This document shows positions 10,713 to 58,079 of a DNA stretch of 64,000 nucleotides, piece after piece. The stretch is from a virus. The notes beneath the pieces are model-generated. The model did not search any database. It had not been told where the DNA came from and was given only the letters and a program-made list of their open reading frames with translations. The position numbers were made by a program, and so were the translations under genes. Positions within the stretch are counted from its first letter, which is position 1, and each line of letters starts with the position of its first letter. Location of the stretch: IMG/VR virus record IMGVR_UViG_3300025652_000002; one strand, given 5' to 3'.

Positions 10713-10931
10713 ATGCAGGCTCAAACTACGGATGAACTAATCAAATACATGAACGAGGTAAATCGGCCTGTGCTTGTAATCTCAAAACCAGATTACGACG
10801 CAGAGCCAGAATTTCTTAGCGTTGAGTCCTTCGACGCAGAAGAAGAAGCATTTCAAGTACTTAACCCCGCTACAGGAGAGTGGGGTGAGTGGTATGTAAA
10901 TGATAAGTATCTCTATGATATCATTGTGTAA
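10713..10931 (+). CDS. hypothetical protein
   Basis: ATG immediately after the upstream stop. Confidence 0.45.
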   Translation: MQAQTTDELIKYMNEVNRPVLVISKPDYDAEPEFLSVESFDAEEEAFQVLNPATGEWGEWYVNDKYLYDIIV

Positions 10932-10954
10932 AAAATACTGCCGCCTAATGACCA
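10931..10954 (+). promoter_or_regulatory. candidate phage-RNAP promoter AAAAATACTGCCGCCTAATGACCA
   Basis: One of four intergenic copies of a conserved ~24-nt motif. Upstream of the SSB gene. Confidence 0.5.
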
Positions 10955-11014
10955 AGGCCAGTTGCCGACGCGGTCAAACAACAACAAAAATGAAAACAAA
11001 AGGAAAGCAAATTT

Positions 11015-11680
11015 ATGGCTGTAATTGAAAACGTAGAACTGTGGTGGGTAAAGTGTGATCCAGAGGATCCAGTAAAGAACGATGATGATGACAAACCAGA
11101 CTACTGGGAAGTCCAAGTTCGTACCACTGACAAAGAAAAGGCTCTACACTGGAAGAAGAATAATGTTCGTTTCAAACCTCTGAAGCGTATTGTTCGTGAT
11201 GACAAGGGCGAAAAAGTCCTAGATGAAATGAATGAGCCAGTTCGAGAGAACGTTCTAGATGAGGATACAGGTCTGCCTTACTTCGCAGTCACTCTTCGTC
11301 GCAAAGTCACAAAGGCTAACGGTAAGGAAATGCCCCCTGTTAGTGTTCGTGGTGGTATGGATACTCTTGATCCTAACATTATCGGTAACAAAACTATCGG
11401 TAACGTAAGTATCTTTCAGTACGACTACGTTTATAAGGGCGAGGAAGGTATTGCTACAATGCTAAAGGGCATTCAGGCAGTAAAACTCGTCAAGTTCGAG
11501 AAGACAGGTGGTGACGATGAGTTTAAACCTGTTGAAATGGAAATCGTTGGGGGTGGTAATATTGATGATATCAATGAGACTCCTTCTGCAAAGACCCCTG
11601 TTAAAGGGAAGTCTAAAGCGAAAGCTAAAGAAGAAGACTTCGACGATGACAATATGGACGACGAAATCCCTTTTAACTAA
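11015..11680 (+). CDS. putative ssDNA-binding protein (T7 gp2.5-like)
   Basis: 221 aa. Acidic C-terminal tail EEDFDDDNMDDEIPFN with an aromatic near the end. Positioned between RNAP and DNAP. Confidence 0.45.
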   Translation: MAVIENVELWWVKCDPEDPVKNDDDDKPDYWEVQVRTTDKEKALHWKKNNVRFKPLKRIVRDDKGEKVLDEMNEPVRENVLDEDTGLPYFAVTLRRKVTKANGKEMPPVSVRGGMDTLDPNIIGNKTIGNVSIFQYDYVYKGEEGIATMLKGIQAVKLVKFEKTGGDDEFKPVEMEIVGGGNIDDINETPSAKTPVKGKSKAKAKEEDFDDDNMDDEIPFN

Positions 11681-11692
11681 GGGAACTTGTCC

Positions 11693-11815
11693 ATGAGCAC
11701 CATTGAAAAATGGCGGCAGGTTCCTGATCTACCTATAAAAGCTTCGTCTTGGGGTAGAATCTGGAAAGAACCAAAAGAAGGCGTACCTCTCCCAAACGGA
11801 GGGGTGCGTCAGTAA
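11693..11815 (+). pseudogene. possible remnant of an HNH homing endonuclease (NUMOD4-like N-terminus only)
   Basis: MSTIEKWRQVPDLPIKASSWGRIWK resembles the NUMOD4 motif. The frame stops after 40 codons, with a similar coding-like frame continuing downstream. Confidence 0.3.
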
Positions 11816-11891
11816 ACCACCCAGACTTTATTGAATACTGTAAAAGTCGAACTGGGGAGTATAGCCCTTACCGAAAAGGGAAAGCACTAAT

Positions 11892-11920
11892 GGAGAACCT
11901 GTAATGGGTTCTCCTTTTTT
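11892..11920. terminator. rho-independent terminator
   Basis: ggagaacc-tgtaatg-ggttctcc followed by tttttt. Confidence 0.6.
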
Positions 11921-11942
11921 ATCATTTTAGGAATGAACAAGA

Positions 11943-12536
11943 ATGTATAAGAACGACTTACCAAAAATCAAGAAGTTTGTGCTCGAAGAAGGCATCAGCG
12001 GTATGGACCGTGTTTTCTACTTTATGTTGGGTTCTATCCGCGTAAAGTTTTTGACCCTCCCTTCAGTAACAGACTCGATCGTTAAAGAAGGTGCCCTCTC
12101 GCGCCATATTTGGGGCAACAAGGCTACGGCCTACAAAGACTACAACCGCTTAGACAAGATCAAGCTGTTTGAAGACGTGTTTGACCCAGCAAAGAGCACC
12201 ATAGATCTATCTCGTGAGCTAACGGATATCAGGGGCATCGGAGTCACCAAGTCGTCGTTCTTTCTGCAACTCTTGGGCAGAGACACTGCTTGCTTAGACG
12301 TACATAACCTCAAGAAGTTAGGGTTCCACCACAAGAAGTTTGCCAAGAAAGATATTGAGACCGCCAAGCAATACCACAAGACTGTAAACGAAAAGGGTGC
12401 AGCTTTCTGGTGGGATAGCTGGTGTGGAACAATCTTTGACGGTTATTCTGAATACTTCGAAAGCCCCGAACAGATTTCTAACCTCCACCTTGAAATCATT
12501 TCAGGTCAGGTTACTGACAACTTTAAGAAAGTATAA
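11943..12536 (+). CDS. hypothetical protein with HhH-GPD-like (DNA glycosylase superfamily) motif
   Basis: LTDIRGIGVTKSSFFLQLLGRDTACLDVHNLKKLG resembles the helix-hairpin-helix + VDTHV element. Confidence 0.35.
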   Translation: MYKNDLPKIKKFVLEEGISGMDRVFYFMLGSIRVKFLTLPSVTDSIVKEGALSRHIWGNKATAYKDYNRLDKIKLFEDVFDPAKSTIDLSRELTDIRGIGVTKSSFFLQLLGRDTACLDVHNLKKLGFHHKKFAKKDIETAKQYHKTVNEKGAAFWWDSWCGTIFDGYSEYFESPEQISNLHLEIISGQVTDNFKKV

Positions 12537-12541
12537 GTACA

Positions 12542-12757
12542 ATGACCAAAGTTTATCTAATCTACACTATGGGGGGAGAAGACCCTCTTTACACGACCTC
12601 TACCTTAGAGGTAGCTAACGAGGTAGTTGAACAACTACTTTTAGAAGACAACGAGCAACTTGGTTATCCTCTATCCTACTGGATAGTAGAACAACCCCTC
12701 GTTGAGAGTCTATCCGACACAGAATACACCCCCAAACTAGAGGACTTAACCCCATGA
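12542..12757 (+). CDS. small hypothetical protein (paralog of 12974-13180)
   Basis: YLIYTMGGEDPLYTTSTLEVANE vs ILVYRQGDEDPHFATTTPEIAQE. Confidence 0.45.
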   Translation: MTKVYLIYTMGGEDPLYTTSTLEVANEVVEQLLLEDNEQLGYPLSYWIVEQPLVESLSDTEYTPKLEDLTP

Positions 12758-12987
12758 AACCTAATTACAGTGAAGACCTACTCTATGAAGTCATGCTTAC
12801 TGAAATGAAAAACATAATTGAGTTCGAGGAGACAGAGGGTAACGACCCTTACGAAACAACCTACGAGAAGGCTATAATGATTGCCGCTGCGTACCGTATC
12901 CTGCGTCACTACACAAATGGCTCTGACTTCAAGGCTTTCTGCGAACTACGCCGCCTTGTACGGGAGAAACACTATGGCAACGACTAG
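12754..12987 (+). CDS. hypothetical protein
   Basis: ATGA overlap. Confidence 0.45.
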   Translation: MKPNYSEDLLYEVMLTEMKNIIEFEETEGNDPYETTYEKAIMIAAAYRILRHYTNGSDFKAFCELRRLVREKHYGND

Positions 12988-13641: not shown

Positions 13642-14021
13642 AACAGTGTATCAACGAAGGTTGTGTTAACCCTGTTAAAAAGATATCCTTCTCAAAGTCT
13701 GGTTATGCAATAAAACACAACTTTTGTAACACTTGTATACAAACAAAGTCAAACTACGGCATAACTGTGCCTGAGAGAAATGCCCTTCTCGAAGAACAAT
13801 CAGGTACCTGTGCTTTGTGTGAAAAGGCCATAGAGTTCAAAGGTCAAACGAAAAAGGGTGACAGTAGTGAAGGTGTTGCGGTTGTTGACCACTGCCACGA
13901 CAAACAAGTTGTTAGAGGGATACTTTGTAGCAACTGTAACAGGGGTTTAGGTTTGTTTTATGAAAACAAAAACACACTTCTAAGAGCAATCAAATATTTG
14001 GAGAATACGGAAAATGACTAA
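13638..14021 (+). CDS. recombination endonuclease VII (T4 gp49-like)
   Basis: CALCEK...VVDHCHDKQVVRGILCSNCNRGLG matches the Endo VII Zn/H-N-H signature. Probable GTG start at 13638 overlapping the upstream TGA (the listed start at 13623 is TTG). Confidence 0.7.
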   Translation: MKQCINEGCVNPVKKISFSKSGYAIKHNFCNTCIQTKSNYGITVPERNALLEEQSGTCALCEKAIEFKGQTKKGDSSEGVAVVDHCHDKQVVRGILCSNCNRGLGLFYENKNTLLRAIKYLENTEND

Positions 14022-14466
14022 ATCTAAAGACCATGTGTATCTTTGCGGCCCGATGGAAGACGTATCAGTAGACCACATGACAAGCTGGCGGCGTCAGGCC
14101 TCTGAGCGATTTGATGCAGCAGGGATTGACAGCCTTGATCCAACGAGACGAGTATCCTTCCATGATCAACTTCAGGGTGTAGACCACCTACAAGAGGTTG
14201 TAAAGGGAATGAACATCTGCAAACGTATCTTCAAACAAGACCTTGAAGACATTGCCAACTCTAAGGTGATGCTTGTTGACGCTCGACGGTCGTCTGGCAA
14301 AGGAACCGGAACGGCTATGGAAGTCATGTTTGCTCACACAAAGAACAAGATCATTATCCTCTGGTGTGATGAAGATGATCACCCTCACCCGTTCTATGAG
14401 GCAATGTACTCAGAGAAACACTACAACCTTGAAGACGCTATTGAAGCTGTACTGGAGTACTTCTGA
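14014..14466 (+). CDS. nucleoside 2-deoxyribosyltransferase-like protein
   Basis: VYLCGPM near the N-terminus and GKGTGTAMEVMFA resemble PF05014-family motifs. Confidence 0.4.
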   Translation: MTKSKDHVYLCGPMEDVSVDHMTSWRRQASERFDAAGIDSLDPTRRVSFHDQLQGVDHLQEVVKGMNICKRIFKQDLEDIANSKVMLVDARRSSGKGTGTAMEVMFAHTKNKIIILWCDEDDHPHPFYEAMYSEKHYNLEDAIEAVLEYF

Positions 14467-15911: not shown

Positions 15912-16414
15912 CAGCAGATAATAAATTTCACGGTGACTTCAGCACCCTAACTGATGAAGAGAAAGACCTAGTCATCAACCCAAAGCACTATAAGATTCTT
16001 GGTGTTGAGGTGATGCAGCTGTTCCTCTATAAAGGTATGGAGTATATGGACATTATGAGGTACGCCCTGTCACGACATACAGGGGTTATTGCCCACGTCC
16101 TTGGTCAAGTCTTCAAGTATTCTTTCCGCTTAGGTGGGAAGGATGACGAACTACAAGACGCTACAAAGATTGCTTGGTACGGTAACCGTCTTGTTGAAGA
16201 GATCGAGTTCAAACGCGGTATCCGTAAAGAGGAACCTCGTGGTGACTTCCCAGAAGGGCTACTCTCAGATAGACAACGAGTCATTTCTCATCTTGAAGAA
16301 GCAGGTAGGCTTCTTGATAGACATGACGAAGTTAGAAGCCCAGACCTTGACGACGCGTTCGCTTTCATACAAAAAGCTAATAGTAAGATGGGCGACTTCG
16401 TAGGTGACTTTTAA
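15908..16414 (+). CDS. hypothetical protein
   Basis: ATGA overlap. Immediately upstream of DNAP. Confidence 0.5.
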   Translation: MTADNKFHGDFSTLTDEEKDLVINPKHYKILGVEVMQLFLYKGMEYMDIMRYALSRHTGVIAHVLGQVFKYSFRLGGKDDELQDATKIAWYGNRLVEEIEFKRGIRKEEPRGDFPEGLLSDRQRVISHLEEAGRLLDRHDEVRSPDLDDAFAFIQKANSKMGDFVGDF

Positions 16415-18399
16415 TGATCCTAGTTTTCGACACAGAGAATAACAACCTCCTACGAGGAGTTTCTAAGTTTCACTGCGGAGGGGCTATTGACGTTGCTTCA
16501 GGTAGAGAGTACTGGTACGGTCCAGACCAACTAGATGAGTTCCTAGCCTTGCTAGATGAAGCAGAAACTATTGTGGCCCACAACATCAACGGCTATGATA
16601 TTCCTGCTTTACAAAAGATCAAGGCACTCTCAGGGGAAAGCTGGGTTCCAAAAGCCCATATACAGTGTACCTTGGTCATGTCTCAGGTAATGAACTTCCA
16701 GAGGTTTAACGGTAAACACTCTCTGGGTGCTTGGGGTAAGTTTTTTGAAGAGCAGAACGAGGCTTCCTTAGCTAAAGCTATTCGTCAAGGTAACAAAACT
16801 AATGCTGAGAAGTTTAGGGAACTTAGAGGTACCTTCTACAAGGGTGACTATAAGGGCGGCTTCGAAACCTTCAACCCTGAGATGTTTGACTATATGAAGC
16901 AAGACGTGCGGCTTGGTCTTCTAGTTTACAAGTACCTCCGTAAAGAGATTGTTAAGTACATCAAGTCTTCAGGCTCTAAGGGCGTTCTGACAGCCTTAAC
17001 CAACGAAATTCGCATGGATGAAGTTATGACAAGGCAGTCTGAGAATGGCTGGCTTTTCAATAAAGAGGGCGCAGAGGAACTCCTCATTAAAGTTGAGGAA
17101 GAAATCCAAGCCACAAGAGACTTCATTAACCCCATGCTCAACCCTACAGTAAAAGTCATCGACCCTGACACAAAGACTGACTTTGAACCAATAACAGGAA
17201 AGCGCCATGGTCAAACGAAAACACCTACTTATACAAAAGCAGGAAAACTTAATCAGCACCTTATCAATTGGTTTGGCCTTCCTGATGACACCGATGTTAA
17301 TTCTAGCCCTTTCTTTCGGGAATCTCTGGGCTTTTGTCGGGTTGATTTTATTGATGGTGATGTTGGTAATACTACTACGGTTAAAAATCACCTGTACACC
17401 ATCGGGTGGAAGCCTGACGAGTGGAATTGGGAGAGGGTGGGACGACAGTTTGTAAAGAAGTCAGCTAAGCTCTCAGATAGCTCCTTAGAGCCTCTGGGAG
17501 AAATTGGCCAGCTTCTTATGAAGTACTACACCTTAAGATCAAGGAAGTCTATCATAGAAGGGTGGTTCACCCACATCGATGAAGAGGGTCGTCTCCACGG
17601 GGATGTCTTTAACATTGGTACTCCAACCTTTAGACAGACCCACAAGATTATTGCCAACCTACCTTCAGGTAAGGCGGAGTTAGGTCCTGAGATCAGGGCG
17701 CTCTTTATTGCTCCTCCGGGTCGTGTGTTGGTTTCTGGTGACTCCGCTGCTTGTCAGCTACGGTTGCTTGCTCACTACATGGAAGACCCAGAGTTCACAC
17801 AAGAGGTACTTACTGGAGACGTTCACCAGAAGAACGCAGACATTCTTTCTAAGGCTGTAAACAGTCTTAAGAGTAGTACCAGTCACATTGCCATTGAACG
17901 GGCCTTGGCTAAACCCTTTATCTTTGCCTTCCTGTATGGTGCTGGGGGTGCTAAGTTGGCCCGTATTCTTGGCCTCTCTGAGAGAATTGGTGCTGCCTTG
18001 AAAGAGCAGTTCCAGAAGGCTTACCCTAAGCTTGACTCTCTTATCAACGATACCAAGTTCGATGTCGCCAGCACAGGCTTCATTGTTGGGCTTGATGGGC
18101 GTCCTGTCTTCTGTGAAACGGAGCATAAGGCCCTTAACTACCTGATTCAGAGTGCTGAAGCGATCGTCATGAAACTGACTATCTTGATGATTGAAGAGCG
18201 TTTTAAGGAAGAACTCCCTAACGCTAAAATCTTGCTGTTCTACCACGATGAGGTAACTTATGAGGTAGACGAGGCCGACGCGGAACGAGCACGAGAGATT
18301 ATGATTGAATGCTTTGAAGAGGCACCTAAGGAGGTAGGTATTGATTTCATGACTTGTGGCGACTGCAAAATCGGAAACGACTACTACGAAGTTCACTAA
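16414..18399 (+). CDS. family A DNA polymerase (T7 gp5-like) with 3'-5' exonuclease domain
   Basis: N-terminal ExoI LVFDTEN. KPFIFAFLYGAG (motif B K...YG). YHDEVTYE (motif C). Confidence 0.85.
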   Translation: MILVFDTENNNLLRGVSKFHCGGAIDVASGREYWYGPDQLDEFLALLDEAETIVAHNINGYDIPALQKIKALSGESWVPKAHIQCTLVMSQVMNFQRFNGKHSLGAWGKFFEEQNEASLAKAIRQGNKTNAEKFRELRGTFYKGDYKGGFETFNPEMFDYMKQDVRLGLLVYKYLRKEIVKYIKSSGSKGVLTALTNEIRMDEVMTRQSENGWLFNKEGAEELLIKVEEEIQATRDFINPMLNPTVKVIDPDTKTDFEPITGKRHGQTKTPTYTKAGKLNQHLINWFGLPDDTDVNSSPFFRESLGFCRVDFIDGDVGNTTTVKNHLYTIGWKPDEWNWERVGRQFVKKSAKLSDSSLEPLGEIGQLLMKYYTLRSRKSIIEGWFTHIDEEGRLHGDVFNIGTPTFRQTHKIIANLPSGKAELGPEIRALFIAPPGRVLVSGDSAACQLRLLAHYMEDPEFTQEVLTGDVHQKNADILSKAVNSLKSSTSHIAIERALAKPFIFAFLYGAGGAKLARILGLSERIGAALKEQFQKAYPKLDSLINDTKFDVASTGFIVGLDGRPVFCETEHKALNYLIQSAEAIVMKLTILMIEERFKEELPNAKILLFYHDEVTYEVDEADAERAREIMIECFEEAPKEVGIDFMTCGDCKIGNDYYEVH

Positions 18400-19870: not shown

Positions 19871-19894
19871 AAAAATACTGCCGCCTAATGACCA
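19871..19894 (+). promoter_or_regulatory. candidate phage-RNAP promoter AAAAATACTGCCGCCTAATGACCA
   Basis: Second copy of the conserved motif. Upstream of the exonuclease operon. Confidence 0.5.
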
Positions 19895-19910: not shown

Positions 19911-20039
19911 ATGTCTAACTGGTACGACGAAGCTATGAATGAACTCGAAGAAATGTTTGAGGAGGGGACCCTAGACGCCGAGGGTCTCCGGCGAGCAATT
20001 CGAGACCTTGATGAAGAGTTCGAAGAACACGGTGAATAA
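19911..20039 (+). CDS. small acidic protein (42 aa)
   Basis: Not in the ORF track. Sits between the promoter motif and the exonuclease gene. Confidence 0.3.
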   Translation: MSNWYDEAMNELEEMFEEGTLDAEGLRRAIRDLDEEFEEHGE

Positions 20040-20048: not shown

Positions 20049-20897
20049 ATGATTGTTCTAATTGATGGAGATCCACTAATCTACCAAGCTTACTGGCCTG
20101 TGCAGGTTACTTATAAAAAGTATCTGAAAGGTCTAAAAGAGCGGCTGTTGATGGGTGAGCTTTCCCAAGAAAAATATGAGAAGAAGCTTGAAAGAGCAGA
20201 AACTTCTTTCCTCAAGAGAGGAAAAGTCAAAGCGATTGCTAACATCGATAGACTTATTGCTTCTATTTTAGAAGACAACTTTACTACAGAACATGTTATT
20301 GCTCTAGGCGGTCCAACCAACTTTCGAAAGGACTTATATCCTGAGTATAAGGTTTCCTCCACGCGTACAACAGTGCGTGACAACAAGCCACCTTTCTTTG
20401 ATGACTTGCATGAGCACATTGCTTCTATGGAAACCACTATTGTTTCTGAAGGGTGTGAAGCAGATGACCTAATTCGTATCTGGTCGTTAGAGTGTGAAAA
20501 GGAAAACAAAGAGTTCTTCATCTGTTCTATTGATAAAGACCTCGACTGTATTCCGGGTTGGCACTACTGTAACATCCACCCAACCAAAGGGCCTCACAGT
20601 TACGAGGTAACCCCTGAGTATGCCAACTGGTTCTACTGGAAACAAGCCCTCATGGGAGATAACGTTGATAACATACCGGGAATCTGGAGAGTTGGACCAA
20701 AGAAAGCTGAAGCTATTCTTGCTGAAGTTGAACCCGAAGACTATGAAAGGGCTGTCTGTAAAGCCTATGATAAAGCCTACGGAGAAGAAGGCTACGATAC
20801 AATGTTGTTGAACTGCCGACTACTTCACATTTGGCGCTACCAAGATGACCACTTCAAGGTCCCACGGGAGCGGTATGATGCTTTTATCAAAGACTGA
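20049..20897 (+). CDS. 5'-3' exonuclease / flap endonuclease (T7 gp6-like)
   Basis: N-terminus MIVLIDGDPLIYQAYW resembles the T7 gp6 LVMDGDWLVFQA PIN/FEN start. Acidic clusters throughout. Confidence 0.55.
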   Translation: MIVLIDGDPLIYQAYWPVQVTYKKYLKGLKERLLMGELSQEKYEKKLERAETSFLKRGKVKAIANIDRLIASILEDNFTTEHVIALGGPTNFRKDLYPEYKVSSTRTTVRDNKPPFFDDLHEHIASMETTIVSEGCEADDLIRIWSLECEKENKEFFICSIDKDLDCIPGWHYCNIHPTKGPHSYEVTPEYANWFYWKQALMGDNVDNIPGIWRVGPKKAEAILAEVEPEDYERAVCKAYDKAYGEEGYDTMLLNCRLLHIWRYQDDHFKVPRERYDAFIKD

Positions 20898-21366
20898 TTT
20901 AGGTCACTGGAAGTACTTTGGTCCCCTGCCAAAGGACGCTGATGATGAAACCTACTTTGGTTTTGTCTATGTTATTGAAAACAAGGCAACCAAACAGTTC
21001 TACTGTGGTAAGAAACAGTTCAGAGTTAGGGGTGCTAAACGTTCTAAGAACTACAACAAGTCTCACTCTTGGAGAACCTACACAGGCTCCTCCACCCACC
21101 TCAACGCAGACATCAAGGCTCAAGGTAAGGAGAACTTTGACTTTACAATGGTGTCCCTGTATAAGACCAAGGGTGGCTTGTACTATTCAGAGGCTTACTC
21201 TCAGATGGTCTTGGGAGTAATGACACACTACAAACCTTGTGGAAAGATTCCTGTCTGGTATAACGGACAGATTGGCCCTGTAAGGTTTGCTCCAAAAGAA
21301 GACATTTCAGAAAACAACCTTAAGTTTATAAGGAGTTTTATTAGGAACAAACGATGGCAAGAATAG
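20875..21366 (+). CDS. GIY-YIG homing endonuclease
   Basis: FVYVIENKATKQFYCGKK (GIY...YIG). ENFDFTMVSLYK (FxFxILE-like). Inserted between the exonuclease and primase genes. Confidence 0.55.
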   Translation: MMLLSKTDLGHWKYFGPLPKDADDETYFGFVYVIENKATKQFYCGKKQFRVRGAKRSKNYNKSHSWRTYTGSSTHLNADIKAQGKENFDFTMVSLYKTKGGLYYSEAYSQMVLGVMTHYKPCGKIPVWYNGQIGPVRFAPKEDISENNLKFIRSFIRNKRWQE

Positions 21367-23117
21367 TTGAACATATCTCATGCACCTTTTGCGGCAGTGA
21401 GGATAACAGAGCAGTCTACGATGATGGACACAGCTTTTGTTATACCCCTGACTGCCCTAAGGCTTATTTAAAAGGAGACTCAATGAGTGGTTACGAAGAC
21501 CTAGACGCAGAGTTCGATGAAGTCAAACCTTCCTCTCTACGATCAAACGACTCCAACACGGGCGATAATCGCGCTTGGTTGGTAGAGAAGGTAATTAACG
21601 AGTTCAAGAGTGAAGCGATGCCTAGTCGAAAGGTATCCAAGGCAACCTACGATTTCTATGGTGTAAAGGTTGCCTACAATAGTGCTGGGATTGTTAACGA
21701 ACAGTACTACCCCTACCACAAAACATCAGTCCAGACAACGGAGTATGAGGATCAGCCTCAAGGCTTCAAGATTCGAGTGCTCCCTAAAGACTTCAAGTCT
21801 AAGGGTTCGATTGGCAAGTGTGCTGGCCTCTTTGGTATGAACAAGTTTGGTTCAGGTGGTAAACGTCTGATCATTACAGAGGGTGAAGAAGACTGCTGTG
21901 CGCTTCAAGAGGCTACCTTCCAACATTACAAGAAGTACTACCCTATCGTTTCCCTACGTTCTTCAAGTATTACAGAGGATCTTCTAGAAGACCGTGACAA
22001 GATTCGCTCTTATGATGAAGTCATTCTTTGGATGGACAACGACGAGGCTGGTGAAAAGGCGCTACAGAAAGCAGCTAAGATCATCGGCTATGATAAGGTC
22101 AAGTACATTTCCTCTTCGGAGAATGATGCTTCAGACCTCTGGATAAAGAACAAAGCTGATGTCCTTAAAGCTGTCTGGAACGCTAAAGAATACACCCCCG
22201 CTGGAATCTTGACTAAAGAGGGCCTTTGGGCACAGCTGGAAGCCTACAACAAGATTGAGTCGGTTCCTTACCCTCCTTTTATGTCAGGGTTGAACGACAA
22301 ACTTAAAGGGATGCGCTTTGGCGAAATCACCCTTTGGACTTCTGGTACAGGCTCAGGTAAGTCTACCCTACTACGAGAAATTGTTCTCTGGCTTTTAGAG
22401 ACCACCCCTGACAAGGTTGGTATTATTAGTCTTGAAGAATCCCCTGCTGAGACCGCTCGAAAGATGTCTGGCATGTCTATTTACAAGAACCCTGCTGCCG
22501 AGGAACTCACTGATGAGGAGTTGAAAAGAGGGTTCGATACCGTCTTTGGTGACGATAGGGTTATTGTCCTTGATCACCACGGTAGTGTGGCGGACTCTCG
22601 TATTGTAGATCACCTTGAGTTTATGTGCCTGAAAGGAGTGAAGTACCTCTTTTTAGACCACATTACCTTACTTGTATCAGAGGGTGCAGATGGGCTTACT
22701 GGTAACGAAGCCACAGACAAGGTTATGAATGACCTTCTTCGAGTCGTTAAGAAACATGACTGCTGGCTTGGTCTTATCTCTCACCTACGAAAGACCCCTG
22801 ACAGTAAGGGTCAGTCGTTTGAAGAGGGCAAGCTACCAAGTCTTGATGACATCCGTGGCTCAGGTTCTATCAAACAGGTTTCTATGGACGTTATTGCCTT
22901 TGCAAGGGATGTTTCTGCAACAGACGAGACCGTAAGGAACACCATTAAGACGAAGGTTCTCAAGTGCCGCTACACTGGTCTTACAGGTCCGACAGGGAAC
23001 CTTAGCTATGACTATGAGACTGGCCGAATGACTTCTGCCAAGGGTGAGTTCAATGACGAGATCATGGAAGTAAAAACTAAATTAATCAATGTAAAAGAAG
23101 AAGAACTGGATTTTTAA
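21354..23117 (+). CDS. bifunctional DNA primase/helicase (T7 gp4-like)
   Basis: N-terminal Zn ribbon CTFCGS...CYTPDC. TOPRIM EGEEDC / WMDNDEAG. DnaB-type Walker A SGTGSGKST. Confidence 0.85.
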   Translation: MARIVEHISCTFCGSEDNRAVYDDGHSFCYTPDCPKAYLKGDSMSGYEDLDAEFDEVKPSSLRSNDSNTGDNRAWLVEKVINEFKSEAMPSRKVSKATYDFYGVKVAYNSAGIVNEQYYPYHKTSVQTTEYEDQPQGFKIRVLPKDFKSKGSIGKCAGLFGMNKFGSGGKRLIITEGEEDCCALQEATFQHYKKYYPIVSLRSSSITEDLLEDRDKIRSYDEVILWMDNDEAGEKALQKAAKIIGYDKVKYISSSENDASDLWIKNKADVLKAVWNAKEYTPAGILTKEGLWAQLEAYNKIESVPYPPFMSGLNDKLKGMRFGEITLWTSGTGSGKSTLLREIVLWLLETTPDKVGIISLEESPAETARKMSGMSIYKNPAAEELTDEELKRGFDTVFGDDRVIVLDHHGSVADSRIVDHLEFMCLKGVKYLFLDHITLLVSEGADGLTGNEATDKVMNDLLRVVKKHDCWLGLISHLRKTPDSKGQSFEEGKLPSLDDIRGSGSIKQVSMDVIAFARDVSATDETVRNTIKTKVLKCRYTGLTGPTGNLSYDYETGRMTSAKGEFNDEIMEVKTKLINVKEEELDF

Positions 23118-23657: not shown

Positions 23658-25526
23658 ATGGACAACTATCAAAAATTTATTCACCTCTCTCGTTACTCAC
23701 GCTTCCTCGACACAGAAGGTCGAAGGGAGTCGTGGGGAGAAACCGTTGACCGCGTTATCAACTTCTGGCGTAAGCAGATTGGTAACAACGTACTAACAGA
23801 GGCGGAATTCCAAGCTATTGAAGCTGCAATCTATGACCTAAAGGTTATGCCTTCAATGCGTTCTATGTGGGCGGCTGGTCCGGCCCTCGAAGCTAACCAC
23901 TTCCGTGGATATAACTGTAGCTTTGCGGCAGTGGATCACATTCGGGTCTTTGATGAGATTCTCTACATCCTCATGTCAGGGACAGGGGTTGGTTTCTCAG
24001 CCGAAGCAAAGTATGTGAACAAGCTACCAATTATCAATGACAACTTCACAAAGACTGAACGCGTTATCTCTATCGGCGACTCCTCTGAAGGCTGGGCTAA
24101 GGCTCTCCGCAAGCTGATTGCCGATCTTTACTTAGGAAATGAACATGAATGGGACTATACTCGAATTCGCGGTGAAGGTGCACGACTTAAGACTATGGGT
24201 GGAAGAGCTTCTGGTCCGAAACCACTTATGGATCTTTTTGCTTACGTAACAGCCGTATTTAAGAAGGCTGCTGGTCGTAAACTAACACCTCAAGAAGTAC
24301 ACGACATCGTGTGTAAGATTGCTGAGATTGTTGTTGTAGGAGGTGTACGCCGCTCTGCTCTTATCTCTCTGTCTGACCTCGGTGATCCAGAAATCCGTGA
24401 CTGCAAGTCTGGCCGTTGGTGGGAAACCGCTCCACACCGCTCTTTGTCAAATAACTCCGCTGTCTACGAGCAGAAGCCTACTATGGCTGTGTTCATGGAT
24501 GAGTGGGTTTCTTTGATGAAGTCTGGCTCTGGTGAACGCGGTATCTTTAACCGTGGTGGTGCTCGTGAGTTTGCTCCTGAGCGTCGTGATGCTGATCTTC
24601 TGGTTGGCACCAACCCTTGTGCTGAAATCCAGCTTCGTAACGCTCAACTCTGTAACCTAACAGAGGTGGTTGCTCGTGAAGGGGACAGTCTTAAAGACCT
24701 AGCAGAAAAGGTGCGCTTGGCTACTATCTTAGGAACCTTGCAGTCTTCTTTGACTGACTTCAAGTATGTTCGTAACATCTGGAAAAAGAACTGTGAAGAA
24801 GAGCGTCTACTTGGTGTTTCCCTAACAGGTATCCAAGACTGTGAACTTTTGCAGAACCCTCAGCAGGAAGACCTAGAGTTCCTTAAAGGTGTGGCGGTAA
24901 GAACTAACATTGAGTTTGCTGAACGTCTAGGTATCAACCCGTCTACAGCGGTAACAACCGTTAAGCCTTCTGGCACTGTCTCCCAACTGGTTGACTCTGC
25001 CTCTGGTATTCACGGTCGCTTTGACAAGTTCTACATCCGCTCTGTACGTCAGAGCAATAACGACCCTCTAACCCAGATGCTCAAGGACCAAGGCATCCGT
25101 AATGAACCTGACCTTATGAACCCAACAAAGACAACTGTGTTCTTCTTCCCTGTCAAGGCTCCGAGTAGGGCTGTCCTTGCGGGAAACCAAGGCGCTATCC
25201 AACAGCTTGAGAACTGGAAACTGTTCCAGAAGCACTGGTCAGAACACTCTGTCTCTGTCACTGTCTACGTCAAAGAAGACGAGTGGCTCAAGGTGGGTGA
25301 CTGGGTCTATCAGAACTTCGACTACATCACGGGTGTATCGTTTCTGCCGTACTCTGAGCATACCTACCAACAGGCCCCGTATGATAGCTGCACCGAGGCT
25401 GAGTATGAGGCCGCTCTCGAAACCATGCCTGAAATTGACTTCAGTAAACTCGCAGAGTATGAGTTTGAAGACAATACAGAAGGCTCCCAAACTTTAGCTT
25501 GTGGCGCAGGAGGTTGCGAAATCTAA
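23658..25526 (+). CDS. ribonucleotide reductase, probably class II (NrdJ-like)
   Basis: 622 aa. Active-site-like GTNPCAEIQL. Overall RNR-like. Confidence 0.6.
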   Translation: MDNYQKFIHLSRYSRFLDTEGRRESWGETVDRVINFWRKQIGNNVLTEAEFQAIEAAIYDLKVMPSMRSMWAAGPALEANHFRGYNCSFAAVDHIRVFDEILYILMSGTGVGFSAEAKYVNKLPIINDNFTKTERVISIGDSSEGWAKALRKLIADLYLGNEHEWDYTRIRGEGARLKTMGGRASGPKPLMDLFAYVTAVFKKAAGRKLTPQEVHDIVCKIAEIVVVGGVRRSALISLSDLGDPEIRDCKSGRWWETAPHRSLSNNSAVYEQKPTMAVFMDEWVSLMKSGSGERGIFNRGGAREFAPERRDADLLVGTNPCAEIQLRNAQLCNLTEVVAREGDSLKDLAEKVRLATILGTLQSSLTDFKYVRNIWKKNCEEERLLGVSLTGIQDCELLQNPQQEDLEFLKGVAVRTNIEFAERLGINPSTAVTTVKPSGTVSQLVDSASGIHGRFDKFYIRSVRQSNNDPLTQMLKDQGIRNEPDLMNPTKTTVFFFPVKAPSRAVLAGNQGAIQQLENWKLFQKHWSEHSVSVTVYVKEDEWLKVGDWVYQNFDYITGVSFLPYSEHTYQQAPYDSCTEAEYEAALETMPEIDFSKLAEYEFEDNTEGSQTLACGAGGCEI

Positions 25527-35604: not shown

Positions 35605-35640
35605 CTACTTACTATATAGAACATCGTTAGTAGTCGTTAG

Positions 35641-35718
35641 CCCCTCCCTCACCCCTCCCTTGATGCCCTAGCGGGTGTCTTGGTTGGGGTGAGGGAGGGG
35701 TAACCTTTTTTTTTTTTT
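35641..35718. terminator. strong rho-independent terminator
   Basis: 15-bp perfect inverted repeat cccctccctcacccc / ggggtgagggagggg followed by T13. Confidence 0.7.
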
Positions 35719-35760: not shown

Positions 35761-35784
35761 AAAAATACTGCCGACTAATGAAGA
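35761..35784 (+). promoter_or_regulatory. candidate phage-RNAP promoter AAAAATACTGCCGACTAATGAAGA (late-type variant)
   Basis: Third copy of the conserved motif. Shares the downstream CTAATGAAGAAGGGGG with the copy at 58050. Confidence 0.5.
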
Positions 35785-37276: not shown

Positions 37277-38614
37277 ATGACAGAGATTGCCCTACATGAG
37301 GCTCAGTCAGATGTTATTGGAGACCTGTTTTTAGATAACGTTTGTCGTTACGCGGTAGTGAATGCCAGCCGTGGCCTTGGTAAGTCCTACATGGGCGCAA
37401 CCGCTGCGGGGATCGCTGTCCAAGAGTTAATGGAGTTAGATGAGAGTGTTCCTAACAAGAACGTTGCTCTTATTGCTCCTACCTACAGTCAAGCCATTGA
37501 CATTTACTTTCCTCTCTTAGCGTATCAGCTAGGACTAGAGTCCTTCTGCACTAAGAGTTCTCGAACAGCGGGCACCTTCTGGTTCCCTAACAACGTCCAA
37601 CTCAAGATTTGGTCCTATGAAGCCTCAGAACGTATGCGAGGCACAGGCCAGTACTTTGTAGTAGCCGATGAGGTTACTTCTTGGAAGGGCGCTGGGATGA
37701 ACCTTAAAGAGTCTTGGGAAAGTATTATCCAGCCCTGTGTGTCTACACGTTGGTCAAGGAAGAACGCCGTTAAGTGGGGCGCTCAACCGGGAAAGTCACT
37801 TATTATTAGCACACCAAAAGGCTATGACTATTTCTACGAAATGTATAACAGACAGGAAGTTGATGATGACTGGAAAAGCTACACCTACACCTACCGAGAC
37901 TCCCCTTATCTCGACGAAGACGAAATCAATCGAGTCAAGTCTACACTTGATCCTCTCAAGTTTGCTAGAGAATATGAAGCCTCCTTTGAGGACTCTGGAA
38001 ACAACGTCTTTTACTGCTTCAACAGAAAAGAGCACATTTCTAACGACCTACCTTATTTCGAAGCGGGTGAAGATGTTCACATTGCGATTGACTTTAACGT
38101 GGGTATTATGGCAAGTGTGGCTTTTGCGTTGCGTGGTGGACAAGTCCACATCCTCGACGAGTTCCAAGGACACCCAGACACCGAAAGTCTAGCTAAGGAC
38201 CTCTATGCAAAATACAAAGGGCATAAGATTATTTCTTACCCTGACCCTAGTGGTAGAGCACGTAAGACCTCTGCTGCTGTAGGGATTACTGACTTTAAGA
38301 TTCTAGAGAGTCCTCCTTATAGGATTCAGACTAGAGCACACCAAAAGGCCCCTCCGATCATTGACTCGGTAGCCGCAGTAAACAAGAAGTTTAAGAACGC
38401 CAACGGTGACATTGATATGTTTGTTCACCCTCGTTGCGTAAACACAATTCGTTCACTAGAGAGAACTCAGTGGACCGAAACTAACCCTGATACTGCTACT
38501 ATCGATAAGAAAGAGGGAGTAGAACACTGGTCTGACGGTATCCGTTATGCTATTGAGTATCTCTTCCCTATTCGTTCTGGTACGATTAACACAGCGAGAG
38601 GGTTTAGTTTCTAA
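37277..38614 (+). CDS. terminase large subunit
   Basis: Walker A NASRGLGKS. Walker B YFVVADEV. Nuclease-domain acidic motifs VHIAIDFNVG, ILDEF. Confidence 0.85.
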   Translation: MTEIALHEAQSDVIGDLFLDNVCRYAVVNASRGLGKSYMGATAAGIAVQELMELDESVPNKNVALIAPTYSQAIDIYFPLLAYQLGLESFCTKSSRTAGTFWFPNNVQLKIWSYEASERMRGTGQYFVVADEVTSWKGAGMNLKESWESIIQPCVSTRWSRKNAVKWGAQPGKSLIISTPKGYDYFYEMYNRQEVDDDWKSYTYTYRDSPYLDEDEINRVKSTLDPLKFAREYEASFEDSGNNVFYCFNRKEHISNDLPYFEAGEDVHIAIDFNVGIMASVAFALRGGQVHILDEFQGHPDTESLAKDLYAKYKGHKIISYPDPSGRARKTSAAVGITDFKILESPPYRIQTRAHQKAPPIIDSVAAVNKKFKNANGDIDMFVHPRCVNTIRSLERTQWTETNPDTATIDKKEGVEHWSDGIRYAIEYLFPIRSGTINTARGFSF

Positions 38615-38632: not shown

Positions 38633-39202
38633 ATGTCCATTATTGGAAGAGTAGGTAGAGCCGCTGTTAAGAGGTTTGGCCGAGGAGCCGCTAGAGGAGG
38701 TGCTATGAGCGCCGCCCAGAAACGAGCCTTGGCTAAAGCTGTTAAAGCTTCTGCCTTAGCCCGTACAAAGAACGCTGGAGCAACAGTTGCTAAAGGAGCC
38801 TCTCGACGGGTTGCTAAAAAGGCTGCTCGTGCCTCCGCTATTAAGAATACCGAATCCCTAGCTTTAAGACGAGTCACTAGGGGCTTCAAGATGAGTGGCC
38901 TTCGTCGTGTTGACAGTGCTCAGTTTAGCGGCACTACTGGGCGTGCTTTAAAGAAGGCTTCGTATAGTGCCCGTCTAGCTAGTTCTAGGGCACAGTATGT
39001 ACAATCCTCTGTTGCTAACAGGGTGGGTCAAAAGGCCCTTGGTGTTGGCGTCACTGGTAACGTTATGAGACGCCGCTACTCTGACCTCACTACAGGTGAG
39101 AATGTTCGTCGTAACATTTCACGGTATCTTAAAGTTGCTATCCCTGTAAACGCCACTGTAGGTACTGCCTACTACACGAATATGTCAAGAAACAAAATAT
39201 AA
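38633..39202 (+). CDS. highly basic Ala/Lys/Arg-rich protein (paralog 1)
   Basis: AAQKRALAKAVKASALARTKNAGATVAKGASRRVAKKAARASAI. Confidence 0.55.
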   Translation: MSIIGRVGRAAVKRFGRGAARGGAMSAAQKRALAKAVKASALARTKNAGATVAKGASRRVAKKAARASAIKNTESLALRRVTRGFKMSGLRRVDSAQFSGTTGRALKKASYSARLASSRAQYVQSSVANRVGQKALGVGVTGNVMRRRYSDLTTGENVRRNISRYLKVAIPVNATVGTAYYTNMSRNKI

Positions 39203-39213: not shown

Positions 39214-39813
39214 ATGCTTAAAAGACTCATAGCCAAAAAGCTTGGCCGAAGAATTGGACGGAGTGCCGCTACTGGCGTCCGAAGTGCTGCCCAAAAACGG
39301 GCCTTGATGAAAGCTGTTAAGGCTTCTGCCTTGGCCCGCTCTAAGACCGTTGCTAGGTCTGGGGTAGGTCGTGTAGCCGCTGTTGGTGTTGCCGCCACTA
39401 CAGCTACCGTTGCTGTCAATGCTGCAACTCGACGTAAGGCAAACAACCCAAGAAACAAGAGTATGGCTGTGGCCCAACTTAACCGAGGCACTACCTTTGC
39501 AAGAGTTACTGCAAGAGGTCTCGGCGATGTTGCTAAGGCTAAGGTAGCGACTACTGTTGCTGTTGCACGAGGGGACTTGAACCCCGTTGTAGGCAACGCT
39601 ATGGTAGGGGCTGTTTCTCTTCGTGCCCTTGCGAGGGTCACTACTTCTAGTGCAGCAACCCGTGGTAACGTTAATCGGGCAAGAGCAAACAACGCTCGCA
39701 GTGGAGCTTCCCAAATGAAAGAGGGGCTTCAGGCCCTAGCACGGAACGCTGGCACTCTAGCAAGTTATTCTCGTGCCACTCGCCCTTTAACTAACTATCT
39801 CAACAATAAATGA
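39214..39813 (+). CDS. highly basic Ala/Lys/Arg-rich protein (paralog 2)
   Basis: AAQKRALMKAVKASALARSKTVARSGVGRVAAVGVAATTA. Same N-terminal architecture as 38633. Confidence 0.55.
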   Translation: MLKRLIAKKLGRRIGRSAATGVRSAAQKRALMKAVKASALARSKTVARSGVGRVAAVGVAATTATVAVNAATRRKANNPRNKSMAVAQLNRGTTFARVTARGLGDVAKAKVATTVAVARGDLNPVVGNAMVGAVSLRALARVTTSSAATRGNVNRARANNARSGASQMKEGLQALARNAGTLASYSRATRPLTNYLNNK

Positions 39814-56273: not shown

Positions 56274-56285
56274 AAGGAAAACATT

Positions 56286-57023
56286 ATGCCAAGTAATAGT
56301 CGAGTAATCAGTGCCCTACAAGGGGGTACACCCTACACCGCTGACCTCAACCTAGCCTTAGAGGCTATAGACACCTGTCACTCAGGGGTATCAGCGCCAA
56401 CAGACGACCTAGCTAACGGTAAGCTTTGGTTGGATACAACCATTTCTGGTAGCTATCGTTTGAAAATGTATAGAGGCGGCGTTTGGTTGGAACTTTTCCA
56501 GCTAACGGGCACCACAGTAAACATGAGTATTGGTGCAATCACGGGCACAACCCTTACCTCCTCGGGTTCTGTGAACGGCGCTACGGGGGTTTTCACGACC
56601 TCTGTAGCGGCCCCTGCTCATACAGGATCAACAGTTAACGTAACTACTTCTGTAACGGCTCCTTCTGGGTCTTTTACCTCTATCTCAGGAACTACCTGTA
56701 CCTACACCACAGTAAATTCTACCTCGGATGAACGCCTAAAAAGCAATATCAGTATGATGAATAGCACAGAAGCTCTTGATAAGGTATGTTCTTTACAAGG
56801 TGTAAGTTATATCATGGAAGGTAAGCCCAACGTAGGTCTTATCGCCCAGCGCGTTGAGGAGGTTGTACCTGAAGTTGTAACGACAAACGAAGACGGGTAC
56901 AAGTCAGTGGCCTACGGAAACATTGTTGCTCTCTTAGTAGAAGCAGTCAAGGACCAACAGGATCAAATCAACGAGCTGAAATATGAAGTAAACAATCTTA
57001 AACAAGAATTGGAAAGAAAGTAA
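56286..57023 (+). CDS. tail fibre/spike protein with C-terminal intramolecular chaperone (S74-like) domain
   Basis: SDERLKSNISMMNSTEALDKVCSLQGVSYIMEGKPNVGLIAQRVEEVVPEVV...AYGNIVALLVEAVKDQQ. Confidence 0.55.
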   Translation: MPSNSRVISALQGGTPYTADLNLALEAIDTCHSGVSAPTDDLANGKLWLDTTISGSYRLKMYRGGVWLELFQLTGTTVNMSIGAITGTTLTSSGSVNGATGVFTTSVAAPAHTGSTVNVTTSVTAPSGSFTSISGTTCTYTTVNSTSDERLKSNISMMNSTEALDKVCSLQGVSYIMEGKPNVGLIAQRVEEVVPEVVTTNEDGYKSVAYGNIVALLVEAVKDQQDQINELKYEVNNLKQELERK

Positions 57024-57430
57024 TGTCAACAGCACTTATCACCCTGCTAGCCCCTATTATCTCCGACATCGTAAAGCGAGTCGCACCAGATAGGGACCAA
57101 GCAGCAAACATTGAGAGGGAAGTTAAGCTGACCCTCCTAGACAAAGAAGAAGCCCTGCAAAACATGGCAGGTAAGATCGTCCTAGCGGAGGCCCAGTCAG
57201 GGAACTGGCTAACCGCCTCTTGGCGTCCTCTCCTCATGCTCACAGTTGTGGCAATTATTGCCTGTAACTACCTACTCTTCCCCATTATCGGTATTTTCTA
57301 CCCCGCTATGATCACCCTAGCCTTACCTGCTGAACTTTGGAATCTCCTCACTATTGGTGTTGGTGGTTACGTCGTAGGACGCTCAGGTGAGAAGATGGTA
57401 AATTCCTACACACAAGGGGGCCAGAAATGA
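57023..57430 (+). CDS. putative holin
   Basis: Two TM helices. Immediately upstream of the endolysin. ATGA overlaps. Confidence 0.45.
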   Translation: MSTALITLLAPIISDIVKRVAPDRDQAANIEREVKLTLLDKEEALQNMAGKIVLAEAQSGNWLTASWRPLLMLTVVAIIACNYLLFPIIGIFYPAMITLALPAELWNLLTIGVGGYVVGRSGEKMVNSYTQGGQK

Positions 57431-57969
57431 TGGAGTTTTCTAGACTAAAGCTAACTTCCTTATTTCCGAGCCGTGAACCTGACGTACAAAAGGAGCCTAC
57501 AAGTGGTTTCAAGTTCGGCAAGCGTTCACGGCGTGAAATGAAAGGAGTTCACCCAACCCTCATCGCGGTTACAACACGAGCCTTAGAAATCAGTGACGTG
57601 GACTTCGGAGTGACTGCAGGTCTTCGTACTCTTGAAGAGCAGAAACGACTCGTAGCCCTCGGACGCAGCCAGACAATGAAGTCTAAGCACCTTCCTCAAG
57701 AGGATGGGTGGAGCCATGCAATCGACCTACTTGCCTACGACAACGGCAAGGTTACGTGGGAGATCAGCATGTATGCTGCTATTGCTGACGCCATGAAACA
57801 AGCTTGTATCGAACAGAACGTGAGTGCTCGCTGGGGTGCCGCTTGGCATCAACAGACAATTGGTATGTGGAAAGGTCCTATGGAGGAGTTGATGAACCAG
57901 TATGTGGACATCCGACGCTCTCAGGGACGGACCCCGTTCATCGACGGTCCTCACTTCGAACTTACCTAA
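57427..57969 (+). CDS. endolysin, peptidase M15 (L-Ala-D-Glu peptidase / VanY-like)
   Basis: GLRTLEEQKRLVALGRS...SKHLPQEDGWSHAIDL matches the M15_3 Zn-binding H/D/H arrangement. Confidence 0.7.
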   Translation: MMEFSRLKLTSLFPSREPDVQKEPTSGFKFGKRSRREMKGVHPTLIAVTTRALEISDVDFGVTAGLRTLEEQKRLVALGRSQTMKSKHLPQEDGWSHAIDLLAYDNGKVTWEISMYAAIADAMKQACIEQNVSARWGAAWHQQTIGMWKGPMEELMNQYVDIRRSQGRTPFIDGPHFELT

Positions 57970-57982
57970 AAAGAGATCAGAA

Positions 57983-58041
57983 AGCCATGAAAATGTTGAT
58001 TTTGGAGATATAGCTTTTCCTTATAGTTTTCATGGCCTTTT
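57983..58041. terminator. terminator-like long hairpin
   Basis: agccatgaaaa ... ttttcatggc 10-11-bp stem followed by cttttg, directly after the endolysin gene. Confidence 0.4.
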
Positions 58042-58049
58042 GACAAACC

Positions 58050-58079
58050 AAAAATACTGCCGCCTAATGAAGAAGGGGG
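58050..58079 (+). promoter_or_regulatory. candidate phage-RNAP promoter AAAAATACTGCCGCCTAATGAAGAAGGGGG (late-type variant)
   Basis: Fourth copy of the motif. Upstream of the portal gene. Confidence 0.5.

Follow-up and report, generated by a model that had tools for sequence, protein, structure and literature searches.

What does the repeated intergenic sequence of an uncultured marine phage genome do, and which enzyme reads it? The question is posed by a stretch of 64,000 nucleotides (nt) from IMG/VR record IMGVR_UViG_3300025652_000002 (hereafter the window). Essentially every gene of this phage genome segment lies on the plus strand, and its nearest named relatives, which share its gene order, are the roseophages DSS3_VP1 and DSS3_PM1 (Naomviridae). 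Four copies of one 21-nt motif, here called P1 to P4, lie between its genes. Two phage-encoded enzymes come into question as readers: a 730-amino-acid (aa) single-subunit RNA polymerase (RNAP) of the T7 type, and a putative second polymerase fused to a head-morphogenesis domain (MuF-RNAP). We regard it as quite probable that the four copies are T7-type promoters read by the 730-aa RNAP, in line with a preliminary description of the window. This enzyme is favored as the reader by its intact catalytic motifs, by the strand-specific intergenic placement of the sites at operon starts, by their conservation at orthologous positions, and by a replacement of the motif between lineages that parallels change in the specificity loop of the enzyme.

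A discrete set of co-oriented intergenic motif copies

The motif reads AAAAATACTGCCG(C/A)CTAATGA. P1, P2 and P4 carry the exact form AAAAATACTGCCGCCTAATGA, and P3 differs from it by a single mismatch, C to A at motif position 14 (-6, counted from a predicted +1 at the G of motif position 20; Table 1). All four copies are intergenic and on the plus strand. A Hamming scan of both strands returned no site with 2 to 6 mismatches to the 21-mer, the next-best site having 7, and this empty gap marks the four copies as a discrete set. The preliminary description had proposed a genome-wide search, and within the window the scan yields these four copies only. Their number, strand and placement stand as described there, while the conserved length, given as 24 to 30 nt, shrinks to an invariant block of 21 nt.

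None of 100 dinucleotide shuffles gave a match to the 21-mer at up to 3 mismatches, and the 21-mer is the top direct-repeat family of the window. The intergenic share of the window is about 4.5% by a crude gene call. Roughly 3.4% of positions allow 20 of the 21 bases to be intergenic, which puts the chance probability of all four placements near 1e-6; an equal occurrence within coding regions, named beforehand as evidence against a promoter, was not seen. From the end of the 730-aa RNAP gene it is about 440 nt to the first copy, and no copy occurs ahead of that gene in the 1.4-8.3 kb region.

The absence of sigma70 architecture noted in the preliminary description was borne out, as a consensus scan called no -35/-10 hexamers at any of the four sites; TAATGA of the motif agrees with TATAAT at 2 of 6 positions. 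A sigma70 reading of the 21-mer was rejected on the grounds that no -35/-10 call was obtained at any site and that sequence upstream of -19 is not conserved. The 30-nt motif region folds at -4.9 kcal/mol (z = -1.7, not significant) and contains no inverted repeat. The 21-mer region is unlike the N4 virion-RNAP hairpin type (5-7 bp stem, 3-nt loop), and the 21-mer has neither dyad symmetry nor iteron-like repetition, with a single copy per site in the window.

The 730-aa RNAP, which would be the protein that binds the 21-mer, aligns to residues 411-883 of T7 RNAP (also 295-350) at about 28% identity. It keeps the DGS..GxQH, KRxVMTLxYG, HSxD, HDSFG and C-terminal FxFA motifs, and equivalents of T7 D537, K631/Y639, H784 and D812 are present.

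Conservation at orthologous sites

Pattern scans for the 21-mer were run on IMG/VR and Joint Genome Institute (JGI) metagenomes, with synteny assessed by translated comparison. About 25 motif-bearing contigs are syntenic with the window, their proteins being roughly 60-77% identical. On these contigs, every motif copy stands at one of the four orthologous positions, apart from one further copy that lies in tandem with the portal copy, about 122 nt 5' of it. Three loci found without DNA ascertainment, through RNAP or head-protein similarity only, likewise carry the motif at orthologous sites between diverged flanks (L019, with an RNAP 73% identical to that of the window, and L101 and L076, with portal proteins 70-71% identical).

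In an eleven-site alignment with 40-nt flanks, conservation is confined to the motif. Among 28 distinct site sequences, -6 (A or C) is the one variable position from -19 to +2. Conservation breaks off sharply at -20, and A occupies +5 in 27 of the 28. Matches in L005, L038, L045, L050, L051, L055, L060 and L066 were set aside, as these loci lack similarity to the window and mostly also the A-tract; eight non-syntenic matches are close to a rough chance estimate for a 17-19-mer in such collections. Past the end of the window, no further motif was found in 6.4 kb of L070, a locus 100% identical to the window where the two align. Nor did one occur in about 10 kb of L101, the rest of that locus past the matched MuF-RNAP stretch.

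Lineage-specific motifs and the specificity loop of the 730-aa RNAP

In lineages whose RNAP is 46-55% identical to that of the window, the corresponding positions, 5' of the SSB-like (single-stranded DNA-binding protein-like), exonuclease or portal gene, are occupied by repeated motifs of a different sequence. The window group has ATAC-TGCCG(C/A)C-TAAT-GA; L010 has TTAC-TCCCGCC-TAAT-GA, L011 and L012 TAC-CTGACGT-TAAA-GA, L096 and L139 TA(C/G)-CTGACGT-TTAA-GA, L013 TAG-GGCGGAA-TAAT-GA, and L136 and L137 TAG-AGGCCCA-TAAT-GA. DSS3_VP1 has ATAGG(G/T)(T/G)(G/A)CGT-TAAA-GA in 12 plus-strand copies, mostly intergenic; this motif can also be written ATAGG(G/T)(T/G)(G/A)CGTTAAAGA, and its sites are ATAGGGTGCGTTAAAGA. 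Common to all lineages is TA(C/G)-N7-TAA(A/T)-GA with identical spacing, and only the N7 block changes. This is how the T7, T3, SP6 and K11 promoters differ from one another. In L015/L017 (RNAP 43% identical), the search found no convincing repeated motif, and a single candidate in L016 was dropped as unreplicated.

The T7 specificity loop, whose residue set is cited in PMC11880802, has its equivalent in residues 602-626 of the 730-aa RNAP (nt 10100-10174; YRKPKSRDVSFYYGEERIRLTLSIW). The loop is nearly identical in four other lineages with the window motif, despite an overall RNAP identity of 70-73%, and it differs in every lineage with another motif. In the column aligned to T7 R746, Arg is found where -7 is C, and D, E or T where -7 is G; R746 of T7 RNAP contacts the template G opposite C at -7. 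The column equivalent to R756 fits -9 in most lineages. The variable N7 block thus appears to track the specificity loop of the 730-aa RNAP, which is supportive of this enzyme as the reader.

Register and layout of the predicted promoters

When the G of TGA is taken as +1, 10-12 of 23 positions agree between the sites and the consensus promoters of T7, T3, SP6 and K11. The background is 5.9 +/- 2.1 matches, and about 2% of random positions reach 11 or more. Among 17 shifts, this register scored best for all four references. The T7 promoter sequence is quoted in PMC3950665. The resulting layout is bipartite, with AAAAATAC at -19 to -12 and TGCCG(C/A)C at -11 to -5, followed by TAAT at -4 to -1 and GA. 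Together with the match counts, it agrees with the likeness to T7-group promoters proposed in the preliminary description.

Two site classes that differ from +3 onward

The copies had been divided into putative middle and late promoters by the sequence that follows them. After the 21-mer, P1 continues CCAAGG and P2 CCATAGG, a difference first read as an A/T substitution that is in fact an indel; P3 and P4 both continue AGAAGGGGG. Across the 28 distinct site sequences, +3 is C at every P1 or P2 orthologue (GAC[C/G/T]A) and T or A at every P3, P4 or tandem-copy orthologue (GA[A/T][G/A]A). Late copies usually then run into a G-run and a GGGG...CCCC hairpin like that of P3, in relatives of the window as well as in DSS3_VP1 and other lineages. 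What survives of the two classes is this conserved difference in the initially transcribed region from +3; the binding region is the same in both. The alignments hence support a conserved middle/late distinction that would sit in the initially transcribed region. Plausibly, the difference between GAC... and GA(A/T)G...GGGG with a 5' hairpin sets promoter escape or strength and transcript stability for the late genes.

Tandem copies 5' of the portal gene, two or three in number and about 35-125 nt apart, occur in L001, L003, L004, L044, L062, L067, L076 and L101, and also in DSS3_VP1 (19202, 19237, 19326), L096, L139 and L136/L137. In tandem pairs, the start is of the GATA type in the upstream copy, and G-rich with a hairpin in the downstream one. 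The window has the downstream copy only.

A putative second polymerase and an invariant early motif

The open reading frame (ORF) starting at 60215 encodes an N-terminal Mu-F/SPP1 gp7 head-morphogenesis domain and, further on, a region that matches a PHROG with an RNA polymerase annotation. DSS3_VP1 gp108 (L035 21242-25633), the full-length orthologue, scores 27.1 bits against Pfam RNA_pol (cut-off 22), and the DxxGR, motif A Asp, HSxD-like and HDAF motifs can be seen in its alignment to T7 RNAP. Public annotation of the MuF-RNAP protein is limited to 'head morphogenesis' or 'minor head protein', and a sequence search of solved structures with the part encoded in the window gave no match. Relatives occur on at least 398 IMG/VR contigs and, among deposited phages, only in DSS3_VP1, DSS3_PM1 and EBPR siphovirus 1. 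Judged by these alignments, the Naomviridae-like family is one with two T7-superfamily polymerases per genome. The MuF-RNAP domain is very divergent, apparently catalytically intact, and a candidate capsid-delivered RNAP.

The MuF-RNAP gene of L004 (8945-9611) stops matching the window at 63622, and in EBPR siphovirus 1 (JF412302.1, 27784-30136) the match falls into two pieces with an annotated HNH endonuclease gene beneath. This suggests mobile insertions, introns or inteins, in the MuF-RNAP gene of some relatives.

In the second RNAP, the region homologous to the T7 specificity loop (YRPxLQxRIxFxDPVxGRxxxNIY) is conserved across four motif types. Between the window phage and DSS3_VP1, this loop is about 71% identical (about 60-65% overall), as opposed to about 26% for the loop of the 730-aa RNAP (46% overall), both loop values being hand counts from aligned sequences. 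Since the fast-changing motif goes with the fast-changing loop of the 730-aa RNAP, the second RNAP is an unlikely reader of the 21-mer.

A different motif family of about 33 nt, AAAAA(G/C)TGAGAAAA-N-TAA-N-GCATCTATAAT(G/A), lies where the early region begins, 5' of the RNAP gene (Table 1). Lineages with entirely different middle/late motifs have this early motif unchanged. It contains a perfect TATAAT with no TTGACA-like -35 at 16-18 bp, and many relatives, unlike the window, have an inverted repeat behind it, for example GATAC-N3-4-GTATC. The early motif is a candidate promoter for the conserved MuF-RNAP, or else an unusual host promoter. A transcription programme of Naomviridae-like phages independent of host RNAP is conceivable, in which a capsid-delivered MuF-RNAP would read the invariant early promoter and thereby turn on the 730-aa RNAP, which would then read fast-evolving, lineage-specific middle/late promoters; we put this forward tentatively, as a serious possibility rather than an expectation.

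Alternative readings of the motif

Promoters read by the MuF-RNAP, presumably capsid-delivered, would be one alternative; this second T7-superfamily enzyme has its own specificity-loop-like region. Its loop, however, is conserved across lineages with entirely different middle/late motifs. An injected enzyme would moreover be expected to use early promoters, but the early region has no copy of the motif, which stands instead before replication and late operons, that of the MuF-RNAP itself among them; the family-wide invariant early motif would suit a conserved polymerase better. We therefore consider this reading unlikely. Recognition by host RNAP, through a host sigma factor or an unrecognised phage sigma factor or activator, would have precedent, as many phages use host RNAP for their late genes, N4 among them, and most early proteins of the window have no recognisable function. 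Against it stand the missing sigma70-like calls, the unconserved upstream flanks and the lack of a sigma domain in ten early proteins, and wholesale replacement of the motif between sister lineages in step with a phage RNAP loop would not be expected. It appears highly improbable.

Two readings without a polymerase at the motif fare no better. The motif could be bound by a phage protein other than a polymerase, for which it would serve as operator or activator or act in replication or packaging. A protein with an HTH_23 domain is encoded directly 5' of the RNAP gene (7548-8222), and lineage-specific sites could co-evolve with a lineage-specific regulator. The sites nevertheless show no dyad and no iterons, occur once per site and are strictly co-oriented with the genes; their TAA[A/T]GA 3' end is common to the lineages and only -11 to -5 varies, a T7-type bipartite pattern, with variation that tracks the RNAP loop (the loop covered by the comparison being that of the RNAP). 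Such a role is very unlikely. An element acting on RNA, as a processing site, stability element or translational signal in polycistronic transcripts, would fit the position between cistrons and the hairpins after the late sites. The motif itself does not fold significantly, though, two copies lie just 3' of terminators where little read-through RNA is expected, and a conserved host RNase site should be family-wide rather than lineage-specific, which makes this reading as improbable as that of a host promoter.

Several points weigh against promoters for the 730-aa RNAP, the reading that we prefer. The large site set was retrieved by DNA pattern, from which much of its apparent invariance follows. 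The covariation comes from about six lineages and is confounded by shared ancestry, residue-to-base assignments are tentative at a loop alignment to T7 of about 28% identity, and L010 breaks the rule that links the R756 column to -9. Four promoters in at least 64 kb are sparse, and units of 16-22 kb are long. The N terminus of the 730-aa RNAP is about 125-150 aa shorter than that of T7 RNAP, which bears on the AT-rich recognition loop as reader of the A-tract. The second phage RNAP and the helix-turn-helix protein (7548-8222) are alternative readers. The remaining doubt stems from the few independent lineages behind the covariation and from a function and a +1 position that are inferred from sequence alone.

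Proposed transcription units and their boundaries

If the 730-aa RNAP reads the motif, then by analogy with T7 the segments -19 to -12 and -11 to -5 would form its binding region, with the specificity loop reading -11 to -5 and TAAT at -4 to -1 melting. The early unit would extend from after a terminator at 1745-1764 to the RNAP gene; it lacks the motif and so must be transcribed by another polymerase. Once made, the 730-aa RNAP would act at P1 and P2 to drive the DNA-metabolism genes (11.0-35.6 kb), and at P3 and P4 to drive packaging, structural, lysis, portal, tRNA and head genes. The P1 unit would comprise the SSB-like gene, an internal hairpin at 11892-11914 and then the DNA polymerase block, the P2 unit would run to the strong terminator at 35.6 kb, and the P3 unit to the hairpin at 58.0 kb. 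The P4 unit would take in the portal, tRNA, MuF-RNAP and head/tail genes and probably ends at the 1745-1764 terminator, judging by synteny with DSS3_VP1.

The position of the sites at operon starts was confirmed. P1 shares its first base with the stop codon of ORF 10713-10931, whose final base this is, and lies 63 nt upstream of the SSB-like gene. P2 is followed by a 21-nt leader, a conserved 42-aa ORF (19911-20039) and the 5'-3' exonuclease, primase/helicase and ribonucleotide reductase genes. A 188-nt structured leader and small genes separate P3 from the large terminase gene and the structural block, and a 111-nt leader separates P4 from the portal gene, behind which lie the four tRNA genes and the MuF-RNAP head protein gene.

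Two of the copies had been placed directly after strong terminators, and both hairpins do fold strongly. The segment 35636-35704, which a U13 run follows, has a minimum free energy of -67.6 kcal/mol (z = -7.3), and the hairpin before P4 folds at -25.4 kcal/mol (z = -5.0); none of 200 shuffles was as stable in either case. A simple terminator scan missed both of these long-stem structures, which were detected by folding. The leader that contains the P3 stem-loop has z = -2.7. The P4 leader as a whole is not unusually stable (z = -1.3), and its stem-loop is weak alone.

Two further hairpins lie near genes of these units. At 11892-11914, a terminator-like hairpin with T6 stands directly 3' of the SSB-like gene and could be an attenuator that raises SSB expression over that of the downstream genes. 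At 8232-8279, a strong G+C hairpin, GCCTCGCCCC-TTCG-GGGGCGGGGT, with a T12 run stands directly 5' of the RNAP start codon, and no recognisable promoter was found between the two. The RNAP gene may be expressed by read-through or attenuation, or this hairpin may be a processing or stability element.

Table 1. Predicted promoters, terminators, stem-loops, early motifs and genes of the window, with orthologous sites in relatives
Feature	Position	Strand	Remarks
P1, predicted promoter	10931-10951	+	-19 to +2; predicted +1 G 10950; continues GACCAAGG; same motif at orthologous sites of L019, L048, L049, L057, L065, L068; variant motifs at this position in L010, L011, L012, L013, DSS3_VP1
P2, predicted promoter	19871-19891	+	predicted +1 G 19890; continues GACCATAGG; same motif at orthologous sites of L002, L006, L019, L037, L041, L052-L054, L063, L069; variant motifs at this position in L011, L013
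P3, predicted promoter	35761-35781	+	predicted +1 G 35780; A for C at -6; continues GAAGAAGGGGG; orthologous copies in L008, L009, L039, L040, L043, L046, L047, L056, L058, L061, L064
P4, predicted promoter	58050-58070	+	predicted +1 G 58069; continues GAAGAAGGGGG; orthologous copies in L001, L003, L004, L042, L044, L059, L062, L067, L076, L101, most with a tandem second copy ~122 nt upstream
Intrinsic terminator	35636-35718	+	long G+C-rich hairpin and U13; ends P2 unit, 43 nt before P3
Terminator-like hairpin	57977-58043	+	weak U tract; ends P3 unit, 7 nt before P4
G-rich stem-loop	35784-35832	+	5' end of predicted P3 transcript, +5 to +53
Short GGGGGUACCCC stem-loop	58073-58087	+	5' end of predicted P4 transcript, +5 to +19
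Early motif, window	~1786-1821, 2711-2746
Early motif, relatives	L014 1384, 1870; L010 6311, 6892, 7164, 7645; L012 7162, 8423; L106 19097
Early motif, DSS3_VP1	35809, 36256, 67793
730-aa T7-type RNA polymerase	8297-10489	+	Pfam RNA_pol, E = 1.9e-74
SSB-like protein	11015-11680		acidic DDEIPF-type tail
Family A DNA polymerase	16414-18399
5'-3' exonuclease	20049-20897
Primase/helicase	21354-23117
Ribonucleotide reductase	23658-25526
Large terminase	37277-38614
Portal	58180-59751
Four tRNA genes	59897-60204		Asn-GTT, Pro-TGG, Thr-TGT, Trp-CCA; between portal and MuF-RNAP genes
MuF-RNAP head protein	60215-64000		ORF of >1261 aa, runs off window end

Other features of the genome and its relatives

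Protein identity to DSS3_VP1 is 46% for the RNAP, 50% for the DNA polymerase, 48% for the portal and 62-70% for the large terminase. A megablast search of the RNAP region against 50,697 phage records found no DNA-level relative, only protein-level relatives being known. At the position of the four-tRNA cluster, DSS3_VP1 has a single tRNA-Asn. The SSB label of the 11015-11680 protein is unverified, as Pfam and PHROGs give no family and a sequence search of solved structures no match.

The protein encoded immediately 5' of the RNAP gene has 224 aa and helix-turn-helix domains (HTH_23, E = 5e-9) and is a possible transcription regulator. In the replication block, a nucleoside 2-deoxyribosyltransferase-like protein (14014-14466) is kept in relatives, and a tblastn search with the DSS3_VP1 dCTP deaminase (gp070), which belongs to the synthesis of deoxyuridine-containing DNA (dU-DNA), detected no homologue in the window. 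Two adjacent genes directly behind the terminase gene (38633-39202 and 39214-39813) resemble tandem paralogues, and a 70-nt direct repeat of 80% identity (38708-38777 and 39283-39352) lies inside them.

Novelty and implications

Literature searches by family names and motif sequences found no description of promoters or of a transcription scheme for Naomviridae-like phages, and a literal search for four of the motif sequences found none. The paper on the family does not mention RNA polymerase, and its sole mention of a promoter concerns an intron; the papers on dU biosynthesis and on single-particle genomics contain neither 'promoter' nor 'RNA polymerase'. The motif set is ordinary in kind, being T7-type, and the novelty is an RNAP-promoter specificity that comes with a natural variant series. 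The lead toward a possible two-polymerase cascade is more novel than the motif.

For an uncultured phage, the analysis yields a concrete prediction of promoters and their +1 positions, with equivalents in the cultured type species DSS3_VP1, and a proposed division of the genome into four phage-RNAP transcription units bounded by terminators. It also provides a natural series of related single-subunit RNAPs with differing promoters and loops, of use for specificity-loop codes and as candidate orthogonal expression parts. If the two-polymerase programme is true, the family would supply at least six natural, mutually distinct RNAP-promoter pairs, and in dU-DNA members such as DSS3_VP1 both enzymes would have to recognise uracil-containing promoters. 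The analysis also leads on to the way in which transcription begins in such phages, part of them with dU-DNA, and to a possible role of the MuF-fused polymerase as an injected enzyme.

Comparison with known promoter systems

Like the promoters of T7, T3, SP6 and K11, the motif is a conserved sequence of about 21 nt in co-oriented intergenic copies, with an AT-rich 5' part and a -11 to -5 block that varies between related phages. It shares with the T7 group a T/A-rich -4 to -1, a G at +1 and a purine-rich initially transcribed region; the first copy just after the RNAP gene and terminators made of a hairpin and a U-run are further points in common. AATAC at -16 to -12 is identical in T7, and C at -5, T at -4 and A at -3 are further shared features. 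T3 has CTAAA-G where the motif has CTAAT-G, and SP6 has GAAGAG at +1 where the sites here have GAAGAA. Unlike in any of these systems, the specificity block is TGCCGCC, to which none of theirs is related, and conservation reaches -19 as an A-tract. The comparison with T7 also differs in scale and setting: four copies in at least 64 kb against about 17-18 in 40 kb, a polymerase of 730 aa against 883 at about 28% identity, and a genome of about 75 kb with a siphovirus morphotype in the cultured relative against a T7-like podovirus.

Syn5, phiKMV/LUZ19 and KP34 likewise have short, genome-specific promoters in few copies for divergent single-subunit RNAPs. LUZ19 and KP34 have four promoters per genome and Syn5 two (PMC11880802), and the 15-bp Syn5 promoter, ATTGGGCACCCGTAA-G, has TAA before the +1 G (PMC3950665), as does the motif. 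Upstream of -4, the sequences of Syn5, LUZ19 and KP34 are unrelated to it. Their promoters were mapped experimentally, whereas the motif described here and its two classes are known from sequence alone.

In N4, an injected virion RNAP is followed by a second phage RNAP, the late genes are transcribed by host RNAP, and the virion-RNAP promoters are DNA hairpins. The window phage resembles N4 in having two putative T7-superfamily polymerases, one with a capsid-associated domain, and two unrelated motif families, early and middle/late. It differs in that its late genes share their motif with the replication genes and that its early motif is linear, about 33 nt long and contains TATAAT; the virion location of the MuF-RNAP is presumed.

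The two site classes recall class II and class III of T7, which are read by the same enzyme, serve DNA-metabolism and late genes, respectively, and differ at few positions. A further likeness lies in the late promoters, which vary least and whose transcripts, predicted ones in the window phage, start with a stable stem-loop. In the window phage, divergence between the classes is confined to +3 and beyond; as in T7, the sequence subclass matches the class of genes served, with one type of binding region.

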